Of a stretch of 64,000 nt of DNA, positions 3,405 to 60,233 are shown one piece after another (position 1 is the first letter of the stretch; each line of letters begins with the position of its first letter). The translations under genes and the position numbers were made by a program. The stretch lies in assembly GCF_988243305.1 (NCBI RefSeq), contig NZ_OZ547136.1; one strand, 5' to 3'. Under the pieces are notes generated by a model. The model was not told the origin of the DNA. It ran no database searches and saw nothing but the letters and a program-made list of their open reading frames with translations.

Positions 3405-3833
3405 ATGAGCTATAGCAATATTCTTGTCGCCGTTGCGGTTACACCGGAAAGTCAGCAACTGCTAGCAAAAGCGGTATCTATCGCCAGGCCAGTAAAGGGA
3501 CACATCAGTTTAATTACTCTCGCTTCCGACCCGGAAATGTACAATCAATTAGCCGCGCCGATGCTTGAAGATTTACGCAGCGTGATGCAGGAAGAAACGC
3601 AAAGCTTTCTTGATAAGTTAATTCAGGATGCGGGGTATCCCGTTGACGAGACGTTTATTGCCTACGGTGAGTTAAGCGAACATATTCTGGAGGTTTGTCG
3701 CAAACATCATTTCGATTTGGTGATTTGCGGTAATCACAATCACAGTTTCTTTTCGCGAGCATCCTGCTCGGCGAAAAGAGTGATTGCCTCAAGTGAGGTC
3801 GATGTGCTGTTAGTTCCACTTACGGGAGATTAA
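3405..3833 (+). CDS. uspC: universal stress protein C
   Basis: 142-aa ORF MSYSNILVAVAVTPESQQLLAKAV... Confidence 0.9.
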   Translation: MSYSNILVAVAVTPESQQLLAKAVSIARPVKGHISLITLASDPEMYNQLAAPMLEDLRSVMQEETQSFLDKLIQDAGYPVDETFIAYGELSEHILEVCRKHHFDLVICGNHNHSFFSRASCSAKRVIASSEVDVLLVPLTGD

Positions 3834-15456: not shown

Positions 15457-15543
15457 TGGTACCCGGAGCGGGACTTGAACCCGCACAGCGCGAACGCCGA
15501 GGGATTTTAAATCCCTTGTGTCTACCGATTCCACCATCCGGGC
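15457..15543 (-). tRNA. leuZ: tRNA-Leu (anticodon UAA)
   Basis: Revcomp reads GCCCGGATGGTGGAATCGGTAGACACAAGGGATTTAAAATCCCTCGGCGTTCGCGCTGTGCGGGTTCAAGTCCCGCTCCGGGTACCA. Confidence 0.9.
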
Positions 15544-15555
15544 TCGGGAAGAAAG

Positions 15556-15629
15556 TGGAGGCGCGTTCCGGAGTCGAACCGGACTAGACGGATTTGCAAT
15601 CCGCTACATAACCGCTTTGTTAACGCGCC
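15556..15629 (-). tRNA. cysT: tRNA-Cys (anticodon GCA)
   Basis: Revcomp reads GGCGCGTTAACAAAGCGGTTATGTAGCGGATTGCAAATCCGTCTAGTCCGGTTCGACTCCGGAACGCGCCTCCA. Confidence 0.9.
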
Positions 15630-15683
15630 AAATTCTTCAGGCCTTTCAGCCAGACATCCGCTTGACGCCGATGTCTTTTAAAC

Positions 15684-15759
<76 letters not shown>

Positions 15760-55244: not shown

Positions 55245-55775
55245 TTATTTATTCAGTCCGGCGTCCTGTTCAAAAGGCTCGACATAAAAACTTTCAGCGC
55301 CTTTATTCACCTTGATACCGGCAATGCCTTTCACCGCATCCGGCTCCGCCAGGACGGCTTCCTTGTTCACTTCCTCTTTCGTGCGGATGAAACGCTCAAG
55401 CCCCATACGGCGCAGCATTTCAATCACACCTTCCACATCACGGCTGACGCTGCATGATGGCGTTCCCAGCCGCCATGACACCGTTCCGGTGGTCAGATTG
55501 GCTGTTTTGGTTTTGCCGCCGTTCGTCAGCTCATCACGGTTGGTTTTGCACCAGTCCTGAATCCCTTTAAAAAGCACTTTGATTTGCTTTTTAAGATTTT
55601 CAATCTGCGGCGTATAACGGGCGGTGATTTCTGCCACTTCGTCATTCATCGCCGTTTCCAGGCGCAGCGCCTCTCGCTGAATATCTCCCAGGGTGCGGAT
55701 ATCACGGCTGACTTCTTCCCGGGTCTGCGGTGCCGCCTCGGCTGCGGCCTTTAATTTTGTAACGCGTTTAGCCAT
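55245..55775 (-). CDS. gam: Gam-like host-nuclease inhibitor (DNA-end binding, Ku-like)
   Basis: MAKRVTKLKAAAEAAPQTREEVSRDIRTLGDIQREALRLETAMNDEVAEIT...ELTNGGKTKTANLTTGTVSWR closely resembles Mu Gam. Confidence 0.8.
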   Translation of the reverse strand: MAKRVTKLKAAAEAAPQTREEVSRDIRTLGDIQREALRLETAMNDEVAEITARYTPQIENLKKQIKVLFKGIQDWCKTNRDELTNGGKTKTANLTTGTVSWRLGTPSCSVSRDVEGVIEMLRRMGLERFIRTKEEVNKEAVLAEPDAVKGIAGIKVNKGAESFYVEPFEQDAGLNK

Positions 55776-55786
55776 TTTGTTTTTCC

Positions 55787-56107
55787 TTATTGCAGTGTGC
55801 CTGATGCTTTATGCACGCGGTGGCGTTTAATGATGGCATCCGCTCCAAAAGACTGTGCAGATGCCTGAAATTCCGCTGAGAGAAACTGAATAATTGCAGG
55901 ACTGTGATACTGGAGAATACTTGCATAAACGTCACAGAGTGACGTCGGCCTGTTATCCGTATCACGTTCTGTTTTCACATCCACTCCAATCTTTTCATGC
56001 ACTTCAACACAGTCATTGCCTGCCAACTTTTCGTCATGCGAAACATGATTAAATTCAAAAATAACGCGTACTTTGCTCATGGAATTACCCCTGTTGATTA
56101 AATTCAT
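55787..56107 (-). CDS. hypothetical protein (106 aa), tandem paralogue A
   Basis: Starts MSKVRVIFEFNHVSHDEK; N-terminus similar to adjacent ORF. Confidence 0.4.
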   Translation of the reverse strand: MNLINRGNSMSKVRVIFEFNHVSHDEKLAGNDCVEVHEKIGVDVKTERDTDNRPTSLCDVYASILQYHSPAIIQFLSAEFQASAQSFGADAIIKRHRVHKASGTLQ

Positions 56108-56357
56108 TACCGTTAATAACCCCGGAAGCCATGCCTCTGTCTTTCATGAATGCACTGGCTTTCATTGCCACAAGCTCTGCGAAGTTTCTGCTTTCCGCGA
56201 GCATAACCACCCCAAAAATCATGGCGGGTCCATCACCTTTCTGCTTTATCCCGGTTGAACGTATGTCCAGACTTACCCCCATGCGCACTGTTCCATCAGC
56301 GTTTTTATGGATAACGTGCTCCTTATATTCGAAAATAATGTGTACGACTTTACTCAT
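56085..56357 (-). CDS. hypothetical protein (90 aa), tandem paralogue B
   Basis: Starts MSKVVHIIFEYKEHVIHKNADG. Confidence 0.4.
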   Translation of the reverse strand: MSKVVHIIFEYKEHVIHKNADGTVRMGVSLDIRSTGIKQKGDGPAMIFGVVMLAESRNFAELVAMKASAFMKDRGMASGVINGNEFNQQG

Positions 56358-56635
56358 CCTCTGGTCCTCGTTCTGTTTGGATAACTGACCCGGCGTCTGA
56401 CCTCACGGCAGAACCGAATCATGGCATTAAAGGCTTCTTCCTCCGTCACCGCTTCCGGTATCCCCGGAACCAGTAACTGCTCCTGTTCATCACGTCCATG
56501 ACGCGCCATAACCTCAATCACATGCCGTACCGTGGCAGGCTTTCCGGCAACTATCGGCAATGCACCTTCCGGCAGGACGTAACCAAACTCAATAAGACCA
56601 CTCGACCACGCCCATGCAATGAGATTTTTTTTCAC
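56354..56635 (-). CDS. hypothetical protein (93 aa)
   Basis: ORF, coupled to neighbours. Confidence 0.4.
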   Translation of the reverse strand: MKKNLIAWAWSSGLIEFGYVLPEGALPIVAGKPATVRHVIEVMARHGRDEQEQLLVPGIPEAVTEEEAFNAMIRFCREVRRRVSYPNRTRTRG

Positions 56636-56636
56636 C

Positions 56637-56903
56637 TCACACCTCCCAGTAAACCGTGCAGCCGCTGATGCGGGTGGCCTTCACACGGCGGCGCAGGCCG
56701 TTGGTCTGTATGGTGATTTCAATTTCACCGGTTCCCTGCACGTTGCCTACCGGCGGCGTGGTTTTCAGTGCAAAACGTTGCGGATAGCGCTTACTGCGTT
56801 CCAGTACCGCACCGGCAAGTTCGGTCAGACGGCGCGCGCTGTTCAGGGAGTCGAATAAATTCATTTTGTTACCGCAGGATTGCATATTCATATAACACCT
56901 CAT
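56637..56903 (-). CDS. hypothetical protein (88 aa)
   Basis: ORF. Confidence 0.35.
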   Translation of the reverse strand: MRCYMNMQSCGNKMNLFDSLNSARRLTELAGAVLERSKRYPQRFALKTTPPVGNVQGTGEIEITIQTNGLRRRVKATRISGCTVYWEV

Positions 56904-57131
56904 TTAGCTGACTTGTTTCGCACCAACAGAACGGCATATTCCGCTGTAAACTTCTGTCGCACCTTCGCGATCAAGTCCGGCAGATATCACCATTCGTGTG
57001 CGGTCATTAAATTCAAAAAGTAAATCGCCACATTCTTTATTTTCGGCCAGTGAAATCACCTTCACGTTATCGAAATTAACCAGGTAAAAGCGTCCGTAAA
57101 TATCAGGAATATTAAATACCGCCATAATCAC
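56904..57131 (-). CDS. hypothetical small protein at the kil position (directly downstream of B)
   Basis: 75-aa ORF overlapping B stop by 4 nt; in Mu the gene at this position is kil; assignment by position only. Confidence 0.35.
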   Translation of the reverse strand: MIMAVFNIPDIYGRFYLVNFDNVKVISLAENKECGDLLFEFNDRTRMVISAGLDREGATEVYSGICRSVGAKQVS

Positions 57132-58069
57132 ACCTGTGAGAGTAATTCAGGGTTGGTATAAACCTCTTTAAAGGCCGCATTAATATGTTTTTCTGTCAGC
57201 GCCGCGCCTTCACCGCTGGCGGTGAGCCACGCCTGGTTAAGCGTATGTGTCAGAACGCGTAACGCTCCCGGCTTTTCAGCGATAGCCTGCATGACGGCCA
57301 GCTCAGCCTCACCACTGATCCCCCACGCCATGGCAATGGCCAGCACATCCGCCTTTTTGGCCTTGCGAAGTTGTTTTGTACGGGCAAGACGGCTGAACAG
57401 GCGCGATAAATCATCAAAGGCGCGGCGTCCACCTTTAAACAATCCGCGCGGGTTACCAATAAGCACCATCCCGATCCCCGTGGCGTCCTGAATTGCCCGG
57501 AGTTGCTCCAGACCGTCAATACCAAGATGATCCGCCTCATCCACAATCACCAGTCCACGCGTTCCCATCAGGCGACGGCGGATGGCGCGGGATAATGCCC
57601 CTTTGTTCGCGCGGGTGTAATCAATCCCCAGCGCATCGGCCAGCTCCAGCAGACACTCCGTGACGCTGGAGTGCGCGGGTGACAGGGTGATCATCCAGGT
57701 GTTTGGTTGCTCCTGGCAGTAATTACGGGCAGTGGCCGTTTTACCCACACCCGGTACGCCCACAATAACGTTAATACAGCCCATCAGGCGAACCGCCTGA
57801 AACAGTGCGCGCAGCTCCTGGACTGTCTGAGTTTCCACAAACTGCGGCGGTTCCGGCAGTGCGCTTTGTTTATTCCAGTTCTCATACCAGGAGCGCAGGG
57901 AAGCAGCCACAGCAGCGTTATCGCCTTTATATTTTCCCTTACGGAAAGCCGATAATGTGCCGTCGGAAATTCCCGCCTCTCTGGCGATGGCATACTGCGT
58001 CAGTACGCCGCCATCAATAAGTTCATCAATGGTCTTGATTACATCGTTAATATCGGTCATATTATTCAC
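57128..58069 (-). CDS. B: transposition ATPase / target DNA activator B (AAA+)
   Basis: 313-aa ORF, Walker A GVPGVGKT, N-terminal HTH; directly downstream of transposase. Confidence 0.85.
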   Translation of the reverse strand: MNNMTDINDVIKTIDELIDGGVLTQYAIAREAGISDGTLSAFRKGKYKGDNAAVAASLRSWYENWNKQSALPEPPQFVETQTVQELRALFQAVRLMGCINVIVGVPGVGKTATARNYCQEQPNTWMITLSPAHSSVTECLLELADALGIDYTRANKGALSRAIRRRLMGTRGLVIVDEADHLGIDGLEQLRAIQDATGIGMVLIGNPRGLFKGGRRAFDDLSRLFSRLARTKQLRKAKKADVLAIAMAWGISGEAELAVMQAIAEKPGALRVLTHTLNQAWLTASGEGAALTEKHINAAFKEVYTNPELLSQV

Positions 58070-58142: not shown

Positions 58143-60233
58143 TCAGGCCAGCGGATCACTTTCTTTTAATTTCGCTTCGAGCAACTGCAATCCCCGCTGG
58201 AAATTACGCTCGTATTCTTCATCAGGTTCATCGTCAGCGACCGGTTGCTGAACGATCACCGTATTACCCACAGGGCGGTATATATTTTCCAGCCACGGCT
58301 CCTGTGGCTTGTGCTCCAGCACGTTGACAATCTCATCCTCGGCATCACGGATTTTTTCCTCTGCGCGTTTACGCATGCCTTTAAGGCGCTGCTGCTGTTT
58401 GTGGTATTCCGCGCTGACCGGGAAGGCTTCGCGTTTATTGCCGTCCCATACCGCCTCGCAAATCACGCTGCCATCCAGGCGACGTACGGTAATTCGTTCG
58501 GCATCATGAATGTCATAGCTGATAAGCACCTTACGACCATGCTCGTCACGCAGCTCGGGCGCGTAGTAAATATTATTCAGCCAGCGTATTTCACAGCGTC
58601 TTACAGGGCGCTCCACCATCGGCCGGAACATATCCCGCAGTTCAACATCGGACAGCCATTCAATTTCCGTGTCCTCTTCCGCCAGGCGTTTTTTTCTGAA
58701 CTCCGCCGGGCTGTAATGTTTACCGTTCGGCTTCATGGGTAATTCATCGTGCGGCCGGTTGTTGTACCACTCAACACCATCACGAATGGCATCAATCAGT
58801 TCAGCCCAGGACGGTGAATCACGCATCGCTGACTGCTGCCGGGCGTTCAGCCGTTTGCCCTGTTGCAGGGCAGTAAATGCCGAGCGTAAATCGCGGTTGG
58901 TTTTGCGTAACGTCTCGCGATCTGCACCTTTCCCGAAATAGGTGCGGTATTTACGGGCTATGCGCATCGGTAATGTGCGGTTAAGCCGTTCGATAATGCC
59001 TCGTCCCTGCGGATTACCGGCAATCCCGGTCGGGTGATTAATCCCCAGTCGCGGCAGTATCCCCACAACCTCCTTATCCAGGATGTCGGCGGTTTCCCCG
59101 GAGCCGTTATCCGAGTAATACAGAAACGGTTTGCCGTGATGGCGAATGCCGTGCTGTATGGCACCGGCTACGGCGAAAACATTTTCAGCCAGGTCAAGGC
59201 TCCAGCCCACCACAAAGCGCGTGCCACCGTCGATAACAAAGGTCACTTCCGGTGCAAATGGCCGACCGTGAACCGGGTGTGCGCATTTCAGCTTCATGCC
59301 GTGACCGTCACCAATCCAGACATAATTCACCGGCATTTTTGACCAGTCGCGGCGCGTGAATCCCTCAAGCTGGCGGTATTCACTGCCGGTCACCCGGCCT
59401 TTTTGTTTCACCACTTCCGGCAGTTTCTTCATTGCGCGGCGAATGGTGTCATAAGACGGCATGATATCGAGCATATAAGGCTCATCAGCGTGCCGGTGCT
59501 GCCATTCAGCGACAAAATCCTCGTAAGCCTCGGTCATTGGTCGGCCGTTTGACTGGCGATACTGCGCCAGAAATTCGGGCAGCCAGTTAATATCTTCGGC
59601 TTTTATTTCCTGGCGCTTACCCGGTGCCAGTAAAAGCAGGCGTTCAGCGGCGTTCTGCGCCTTGTTAAAGGCCGCAATCCAGCGTTTCAGCGTGATTTCA
59701 CTTAACGCGCGGCTGTTTCCCTTTTTGGCGTTCGCCGTCTCAACCATTGCCACAATGCGCTCGTCCAGCTGCGAACGTGCCAGGTTGTCAACGATAAACC
59801 GGATAGCCTTCGCACAGCTGAAACCAGGTTGTTGCGCGACTTTCAGAACTTCGCTGACGATCGCGATTCGTGCATCAGCCACCTGGCGCTGGTTTTCAGT
59901 CAGGGCATTAAGGCGTTCGACCATCAGTTGTGGTGATCCGCGATATGCCTCCACCGCATCAACCACGGCAGGCGAGCGTCTGGCCTTTGTCACCACTGGA
60001 GCCGGTGATTCATCGACTTTTTGAGTCATCAGTTGCAGGGCGTAGCGTTCACGTAATGCCTGCTGCGTCACTTCAGGTAAACAGTCGATGCTGTATTCAG
60101 TTGCTTTAGAGCCTGAGCGACGACGGGAACAACAGCTTTTCCCTTGTACGTAACGTTGTAATGCCTGGCGAATACCTTTTGTTGTAGCAGGCATTCCGGG
60201 CGCACCAATCAGTTCTTTTGCAATGACATACAT
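58143..60233 (-). CDS. A: Mu-type DDE transposase A
   Basis: 696-aa ORF directly downstream of ner; N-terminal DNA-binding domain and central catalytic region of Mu A size. Confidence 0.85.
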   Translation of the reverse strand: MYVIAKELIGAPGMPATTKGIRQALQRYVQGKSCCSRRRSGSKATEYSIDCLPEVTQQALRERYALQLMTQKVDESPAPVVTKARRSPAVVDAVEAYRGSPQLMVERLNALTENQRQVADARIAIVSEVLKVAQQPGFSCAKAIRFIVDNLARSQLDERIVAMVETANAKKGNSRALSEITLKRWIAAFNKAQNAAERLLLLAPGKRQEIKAEDINWLPEFLAQYRQSNGRPMTEAYEDFVAEWQHRHADEPYMLDIMPSYDTIRRAMKKLPEVVKQKGRVTGSEYRQLEGFTRRDWSKMPVNYVWIGDGHGMKLKCAHPVHGRPFAPEVTFVIDGGTRFVVGWSLDLAENVFAVAGAIQHGIRHHGKPFLYYSDNGSGETADILDKEVVGILPRLGINHPTGIAGNPQGRGIIERLNRTLPMRIARKYRTYFGKGADRETLRKTNRDLRSAFTALQQGKRLNARQQSAMRDSPSWAELIDAIRDGVEWYNNRPHDELPMKPNGKHYSPAEFRKKRLAEEDTEIEWLSDVELRDMFRPMVERPVRRCEIRWLNNIYYAPELRDEHGRKVLISYDIHDAERITVRRLDGSVICEAVWDGNKREAFPVSAEYHKQQQRLKGMRKRAEEKIRDAEDEIVNVLEHKPQEPWLENIYRPVGNTVIVQQPVADDEPDEEYERNFQRGLQLLEAKLKESDPLA

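Follow-up and report, generated by a model that had tools for sequence, protein, structure and literature searches.

The DNA analyzed here is a window of 64,000 nucleotides (nt) from contig NZ_OZ547136.1 of the RefSeq assembly GCF_988243305.1, in which the early region of a transposable Mu-like prophage of Escherichia coli occupies 53.5–61.3 kilobases on the minus strand. Immediately upstream of the gam homolog of this prophage lie two small genes in the same orientation, called here gene A (56085..56357) and gene B (55787..56080). A preliminary description of the sequence had interpreted them as tandem paralogs that arose by local duplication, on account of a similar N-terminal signature. The two genes are indeed present at this place, and they are homologous: they belong to a single superfamily that joins phrog_4107 and phrog_2230, two families that are separate in PHROGs. 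A recent duplication is, however, not supported; the pair consists rather of two ancient cassette classes placed in tandem. Both occupy a fixed and dispensable slot of the early operon, in which hypervariability is sharply bounded and recombination takes place at a 5′ repeat common to the two genes.

Gene Models, Families, and Predicted Structure

Gene A is an open reading frame (ORF) of 90 amino acids whose product begins with MSKVVHIIFEYKEHVIHKNADG and reads MSKVVHIIFEYKEH...NQQG from its first to its last residues. The same coding sequence was called by the Prokaryotic Genome Annotation Pipeline (PGAP) in L001, a 98%-identical E. coli locus. Gene B had been described as an ORF of 106 amino acids (55787..56107), which is its longest reading and almost certainly over-extended. 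The real start is placed at the internal ATG at 56080, because an AGGGG Shine–Dalgarno sequence is found 7 nt upstream of this codon, the longer version would overlap the 3′ end of gene A by 23 nt, PGAP gives the gene 294 nt in the 98%-identical E. coli genome, and all the members of the gene B family begin at the equivalent position. The resulting protein of 97 amino acids starts with MSKVRVIFEF and reads MSKVRVIFEFNH...GTLQ from its first to its last residues.

Each protein matches one PHROG family over nearly its whole length. The product of gene A aligns with phrog_4107 (residues 1–90 on profile positions 1–90 of 90, E-value 8.2e-59) and that of gene B with phrog_2230 (residues 3–97 on positions 1–88 of 89, E 1.8e-38), both families being listed as of “unknown function” and kept separate in PHROGs. 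The relatives from Salmonella and Serratia discussed below are likewise assigned to phrog_2230. Searches of Pfam, NCBIfam, PADLOC, PDB, and BFVD with A and B returned no match, and the searched literature library contained no mention of phrog_2230, of phrog_4107, or of three of the RefSeq protein accessions given to these two genes in related E. coli genomes. Structure prediction, which had been proposed as a check on paralogy, was carried out with AlphaFold2 separately for the two proteins. The models, both of low confidence, give the same layout, a long hairpin with strands of about 15 residues followed by a helix: strands at 3–18, 24–38, and 45–48 and a helix at 57–73 in A, and strands at 4–19 and 25–39 and a helix at 48–77 in B. 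The predicted local distance difference test (pLDDT) score is only 62 for A and 56 for B; each protein is therefore tentatively modeled as a long N-terminal β-hairpin plus a helix.

Homology of A and B

The relationship is barely visible in pairwise comparisons. When A is searched against B by BLASTP, the N-terminal match goes unreported and the only hit is a spurious one of 14 residues (E 0.11), and a Smith–Waterman alignment of MSKVVHIIFEYKEHVIH with MSK-VRVIFEF-NHVSH reaches a score of 35 (shuffle p 0.025). At the DNA level, the 5′ ends of the two genes are identical at 27 of 32 positions over the first 32–35 nt, with a gap of one codon (codon-shuffle p 0.0015). When whole families are compared as profiles with hhalign, the relationship becomes clear. 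With shallow family profiles, A and B align over 33 columns (probability 80%, E 1.3e-5); with a deeper B profile, to which relatives from Salmonella, Serratia, and Klebsiella were added via exhaustive and profile searches, the alignment extends over 73 columns (E 1.8e-6). When A is compared with a profile joining B and two classes of Salmonella relatives, S1 and S2, it covers 77 columns with a probability of 93.4%, E 2.6e-7, and a score of 41.0, which none of 150 column-shuffled controls reached (mean 11.6, maximum 19.3).

The preliminary description had allowed that the likeness might be a chance matter of the first few residues. After the N-terminal 11–12 residues were removed, the comparison still gave E 7.6e-6 and a score of 32.1 over 53 columns (0 of 150 shuffled controls, maximum 17.1), so the similarity is not confined to the N-terminus. 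Further links are provided by the Salmonella protein P0138, which matches both phrog_2230 (E 5.9e-6) and phrog_4107 (E 0.011), each over about 75 residues, and by the chain of hhalign comparisons that goes from A to S2 (E 1e-6) and from S2 to S1 (E 6e-16). The profile–profile tests, the bridging protein, and the common predicted hairpin–helix layout together place A and B in one superfamily, and the paralogy proposed earlier stands in this sense. It might be argued instead that A and B are unrelated genes, whose common N-terminus is due to chance or convergence, for example toward a translation-favored MSK start followed by a generic β-strand; the silence of BLASTP on the N-terminus, the merely marginal p-value of the Smith–Waterman alignment, and the assignment of the two proteins to different PHROG families speak for it. 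This explanation is largely refuted and must be considered extremely improbable, since the profile signal of 73–77 columns is kept without the N-terminus, P0138 bridges both PHROG families, the predicted topology is the same, and A and B sit in the same genomic slot as their single-copy relatives.

Cassette Classes and the Age of the Split

The relatives in Salmonella-type prophages come in several widely differing versions, with the two classes named above, S1, whose proteins begin with MSNKVQVIFTFEL, and S2, whose proteins begin with MSNKVQVIFTAECE. These two classes are 23–38% identical to each other and occupy the same position, as alternatives at a single slot. Gene B clearly corresponds to class S1 (E 3.8e-23 in hhalign). 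On the other hand, the body of A, that is, the protein without its N-terminus, is closest to the S2 proteins of Salmonella and Klebsiella (global-alignment z 7–8.7, 23–30% identity), and A can be assigned on this similarity to an S2-like cassette class. The lowest similarity among the classes compared is that between the bodies of A and B themselves (z 1.5–4.3): outside the N-terminal 11 residues the two proteins are 9–20% identical in pairwise alignment and 6–9% identical in the superfamily alignment. Since the body of A is nearest to S2 and that of B nearest to S1, the split between A and B predates the separation of E. coli-type and Salmonella-type prophages, and a recent local duplication is not supported.

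The family is narrow, as only 11 representatives were recovered among 1.84 billion proteins in an exhaustive search with hidden Markov models (HMMs) of the B family. A profile search yielded 135 clusters at 90% identity, and, among the 120 clusters that were listed, 98 comprised full-length proteins of the Salmonella type (S1 or S2). When 50,697 phage records were searched by tblastn, the only matches were in two Shiga toxin (Stx) phages that harbor a Mu-like element as an insertion, and Mu itself was not recovered. As far as sampled, the family is restricted to Mu-like prophages of Enterobacterales. All 26 representatives from Salmonella, Klebsiella, and Serratia end with a histidine; the E. 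coli proteins A and B do not.

A Hypervariable Slot with Fixed Borders

The genes of this family are found after kil and a gene of about 93 codons, called here gene C, or directly after kil, and before either gam or a DUF3164 gene. The order C–A–B–gam is present in 36 of 40 E. coli-type loci from IMG/VR, and two more are cut by the end of the contig. Salmonella-type prophages have instead kil, a C homolog of 90 amino acids, one family member of 97 amino acids, and DUF3164 in the place of gam, and a Serratia prophage has kil, one member of 93 amino acids, and gam. The survey of copy number in related prophages that had been suggested earlier thus had a simple outcome: HMM searches of all the ORFs of 55 loci and the window recovered a pair in the E. 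coli lineage alone and a single copy in the other prophages, the single gene of Salmonella, Klebsiella, and Serratia prophages being 93–98 codons long. No third copy was found among all the ORFs of at least 50 amino acids in the window. The exchange of gam for DUF3164 (PF11363) affects the Salmonella-type loci L043, L045, and L048–L055, whose slot and left flank show no other difference.

Variation within the slot is sharply delimited. Between the Salmonella loci L043 and L045, nucleotide identity is 93–100% in the flanks and falls to 30–50% in the body of the gene, which begins at about codon 11 and runs as far as the stop codon; the corresponding values are 97–100% and 53–80% for L010 and L034, and 0.85–0.95 and 0.55–0.70 among nine Salmonella-type loci. 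In E. coli, two alleles of gene B (B1 and B2) are only about 60% identical at the protein level within flanks that are 97–100% identical, and the copies of A beside them are 86–100% identical to the A of the window. The guanine plus cytosine (GC) content of A (0.45) and B (0.44) is below that of the flanking core genes (0.53–0.55). The ratio of nonsynonymous to synonymous substitution rates (dN/dS) for A, B1, and B2 amounts to 0.30, 0.38, and 0.24, respectively, vs. 0.09 for both gam and kil and 0.13 for C. In addition, A and B1 together have 42 amino acid-polymorphic codons for 27 with synonymous changes only, vs. 39 for 104 in their neighbors (Fisher p 4e-6). The diversifying selection of an arms race, which had been invoked for these genes at the outset, is plausible and is suggested by these comparisons. 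Frameshifts or truncations affect the cassette gene in several Salmonella-type loci (around positions 3501..3795): L051, L052, and L054 are altered at the 5′ end and L055 at the 3′ end, which fits decay in resident prophages.

The Common 5′ Repeat and Its Recombinants

The N-terminal signature of A and B corresponds to a direct repeat in the DNA. Its first copy is the 5′ end of gene A (56323..56357, minus strand), encoding the common strand MSKV(V)x(I/V)IFE(Y/F), and the second, 277 nt downstream, is the 5′ end of gene B (56049..56080, minus strand). A run of 16 nt within it, CGCGTTATTTTTGAAT, is identical to B in some alleles of A. This first strand (MSK-V-x-V/I-I-F-E/T-F/Y) is the best-conserved part of the family, but its distribution does not follow that of the cassette classes. 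Over the N-terminal 11 residues, identity is 70–91% between A and B and 91% between S1 and S2, but only 45% between A and S2. The N-termini therefore track the phage lineage and the remainders of the proteins show the reverse. The signature is real, but its value as a sign of paralogy had been inflated by this lineage-specific sharing and recombination of 5′ ends.

Several loci preserve the products of such events. In L057 (E. coli CP022279, 2001..2297) a single gene stands right after gene C, with the upstream DNA of A, the first five codons of A, and the body of B; this locus has lost gene A by recombination at the common 5′ repeat. The 5′ anchor is thus visibly a site of recombination. Another example is the E. 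coli-type prophage L039 (3554..4730), where both C and A are missing and a B2-type gene stands directly between kil and gam. A different rearrangement is found in L056 (E. coli GCA_049182865.1, 2501..2704; protein P0059), where residues 1–49 of A are fused in frame to residues 79–97 of B with the junction at FG; the fusion is devoid of the helix predicted by modeling, and its locus lacks gene C as well. Synonymous differences among the 5′ codons (AGT/AGC, GTC/GTA/GTT, TTC/TTT, AAA/AAG) indicate that it is mainly the protein, as an alternating-hydrophobic β-strand, that is under constraint, with recombination on top. A promoter, a terminator, or an RNA element was considered as a cause of the 5′ conservation and was rejected, there being no sites above shuffle expectation, no Rfam match, and synonymous changes within the repeat.

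The Early Operon of the Prophage

The prophage DNA is 95–98% identical to that of E. coli Mu-like prophages, including elements inserted in Stx phages, and, of 5426 complete E. coli genomes, 231 contain the A–B segment. All the genes of the early region lie on the minus strand, in the order MuA-like, MuB-like, 75-codon gene, kil, C, A, B, and gam. The MuA-like transposase (58143..60233) and the MuB-like ATPase (57128..58069) are ORFs identified through the PGAP names in L001 and through Pfam families on homologous loci, and these neighbors show the prophage to be transposable and Mu-like and place A and B in its early operon. They are followed by the 75-codon gene (56904..57131, phrog_3375), the kil homolog (56637..56903, phrog_2679, E 7.8e-46), and gene C (56354..56635, 93 amino acids, phrog_1518), which is the conserved left flank of the slot. 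The conserved right flank is gam (55245..55775), encoding a protein like the DNA-end-binding Gam of Mu (PF07352, E 5.5e-42; phrog_491, E 4.6e-70). The stop codon of C and the start codon of A overlap as ATGA, 4 nt separate the stop of A from the ATG of B, and 11 nt separate the stop of B from the ATG of gam; sites resembling internal promoters or terminators in the operon did not exceed shuffle expectation. The position among MuA, MuB, kil, and gam, the coupled starts and stops, and this lack of internal signals above chance suggest that A and B would be expressed early in the lytic cycle.

Two of these neighbors deserve a comment of their own. The 75-codon gene has the lowest GC content of the region (0.417), and its 25 amino acid-variable codons for 19 with synonymous changes only put its amino acid polymorphism on a par with that of gene A. 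Gene C carries the PHROGs label “host nuclease inhibitor,” and in 10 of 40 related loci (L011, L023–L025, L028, L031, L032, L037, L038, and L041) it is represented by replacement alleles in which only the last 22 residues or so match the version of the window; its position may be a second variable slot. Elsewhere in the window, well outside the prophage, the host tRNA cluster Leu(taa)–Cys(gca)–Gly(gcc) is found at 15457..15759 on the minus strand, and these three tRNAs were the only Rfam families detected in the window.

Similarities with Other Systems

The closest candidate in phage Mu itself is gp7 (formerly E6; Mu_7, AF083977 4784..5047, 87 amino acids; phrog_10252), the product of an uncharacterized gene of the semi-essential early region (locus L047, 1785..2048). 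It is similar in size, is encoded between kil and gam, starts with MAKVIIEIKN, and ends with a histidine like the Salmonella members of the family; on the other hand, two other genes lie between gp7 and gam in Mu. The protein matches phrog_2230 weakly over nearly its full length (E 0.009), scores 9.4 bits against the S2 profile, above all of 2000 shuffles, and gives p of about 0.03 with the superfamily HMM. As a single sequence in hhalign it was not significant (E 0.1–0.5), and tblastn gave no cross-match. Mu gp7 may be a distant relative of the family, a weak lead suggested by these scores.

The best analogy is found outside the enterobacteria, where Mu-like phages of Pseudomonas aeruginosa have been reported to contain “regions of genomic plasticity,” in which dispensable, tightly packed ORFs of 34–100 codons, often of low GC content, occupy fixed sites between core genes, and some of them were later shown to be anti-CRISPRs (PMC4378225). 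The slot described here behaves in the same way and has no sequence relationship with those regions. It also differs from them in that its alternative occupants are not unrelated insertions, but homologs of constant length with a conserved 5′ segment. In this respect there is an analogy with another kind of locus. The toxin tips CdiA-CT and Rhs are polymorphic cassettes, in which a conserved N-terminal part is followed by a variable remainder that is exchanged by recombination. A conserved 5′ segment, a sharply bounded variable part, recombination at the conserved part, and tandem variants are likewise seen in the slot; unlike those systems, the conserved part amounts to about 10 codons of a protein of about 95 amino acids, and neither a toxin/immunity pair nor a delivery domain is present. 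The resemblance would thus be one of evolutionary pattern only.

Alternative Explanations and Proposed Function

The explanation that we favor, with somewhat more confidence than doubt, is that A and B are anciently diverged members of one family, held in a fixed and recombining slot, with an accessory role possibly directed at the host or its immunity. In such a scheme, phage lineages would keep an early-operon slot filled by alternative classes of one small-protein family, and the E. coli lineage would carry an S2-like A and an S1-like B in tandem. Recombination at the 5′ direct repeat would keep both N-termini alike within a phage lineage, and would sometimes delete gene A. Made early in lytic growth, the two proteins might bind host factors that are themselves variable, of which components of host immunity are the most plausible; the conserved first strand could be the core of the fold or an oligomer interface, the variable surfaces could provide specificity, and carrying two classes would widen the range covered. 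The functional part of this proposal, early accessory proteins acting on variable host components that are likely to belong to immunity, is more doubtful than the evolutionary part and is put forward as a tentative possibility. A still bolder version, which we think unlikely, would regard the slot as a polymorphic cassette with one or two places, in which a 5′ anchor of about 30 nt (the first β-strand) and the flanks permit ancient classes to be swapped, stacked, or dropped, each class being a variant-specific inhibitor of immunity. Several points weigh against the favored explanation. The family profiles are shallow (effective number of sequences, Neff, 1.3–3.3) and the low pLDDT of both models makes the statement on the fold weak. 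The gene-wide dN/dS values of A and B remain below 1, so that relaxed constraint could explain part of the variation; the frequent frameshifts and deletions in prophages fit dispensability, but also near-neutrality. Finally, the present arrangement may derive either from an ancestral pair that was cut to one copy elsewhere or from two alleles that were stacked in the E. coli lineage.

With regard to the origin of the pair, a recent tandem duplication within the prophage lineage, followed by very fast arms-race divergence of everything but the N-terminus, would account for two adjacent, co-oriented genes of similar length, for a two-copy state confined to the E. coli lineage, for the raised dN/dS of both, and for N-termini that are not only alike but also have residues specific to that lineage (K3, R, E), absent from the Salmonella proteins. 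This is nonetheless quite improbable, since a recent duplicate of B would be expected to be nearest to B itself, whereas the body of A is nearer to the S2 proteins and B is close to S1; and the like N-termini are accounted for by the 5′-repeat recombination directly seen in L057. A different objection accepts the ancient paralogy and concerns only the function: A and B might not be directed at the host at all, but be helpers of transposition, replication, or DNA-end handling, working with MuA, MuB, Gam, or the 93-amino acid protein, or else near-neutral passengers. The location of both genes among transposition and DNA-end genes, to which they are translationally coupled, speaks for this possibility, as do a dN/dS below 1, the frequent loss, fusion, or frameshifting of the genes, and the fact that the N-terminal strand tracks the phage lineage, as if contacting a lineage-specific phage partner. 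On the other side, deeply diverged classes keep a length of 93–98 amino acids, conserved core positions, and intact frames in most loci, which argues against pure drift; MuA, MuB, and Gam vary far less than the cassette; and the slot, which precedes DUF3164 in the Salmonella type and gam in those of E. coli and Serratia, is not tied to Gam. We regard a role of this kind as rather unlikely, although less so than a recent duplication. The Mu-type Gam protein itself has been reported to expose phages to the Gabija defense system (PMC12407980, preprint), and given this link a counter-measure adjoining gam can be imagined, as a speculation.

Biological Significance

Taken alone, the A–B locus is a phage accessory locus of an expected kind, ordinary though neat. 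Its interest comes from the presence of a hypervariable and recombining slot with sharp borders within the semi-essential early region of Mu-like prophages, which are common in pathogenic E. coli (those with the A–B pair) and in Salmonella. Comparable slots in other phages have repeatedly proved to hold genes for anti-defense or host takeover. The A/B family therefore offers a cheap and well-defined set of candidates for functional screens, consisting of proteins of about 95 amino acids in several natural classes, together with natural deletion and fusion variants. If it were true that the slot is a polymorphic cassette of immunity inhibitors, these proteins would constitute an uncharacterized anti-defense family with built-in modular exchange.
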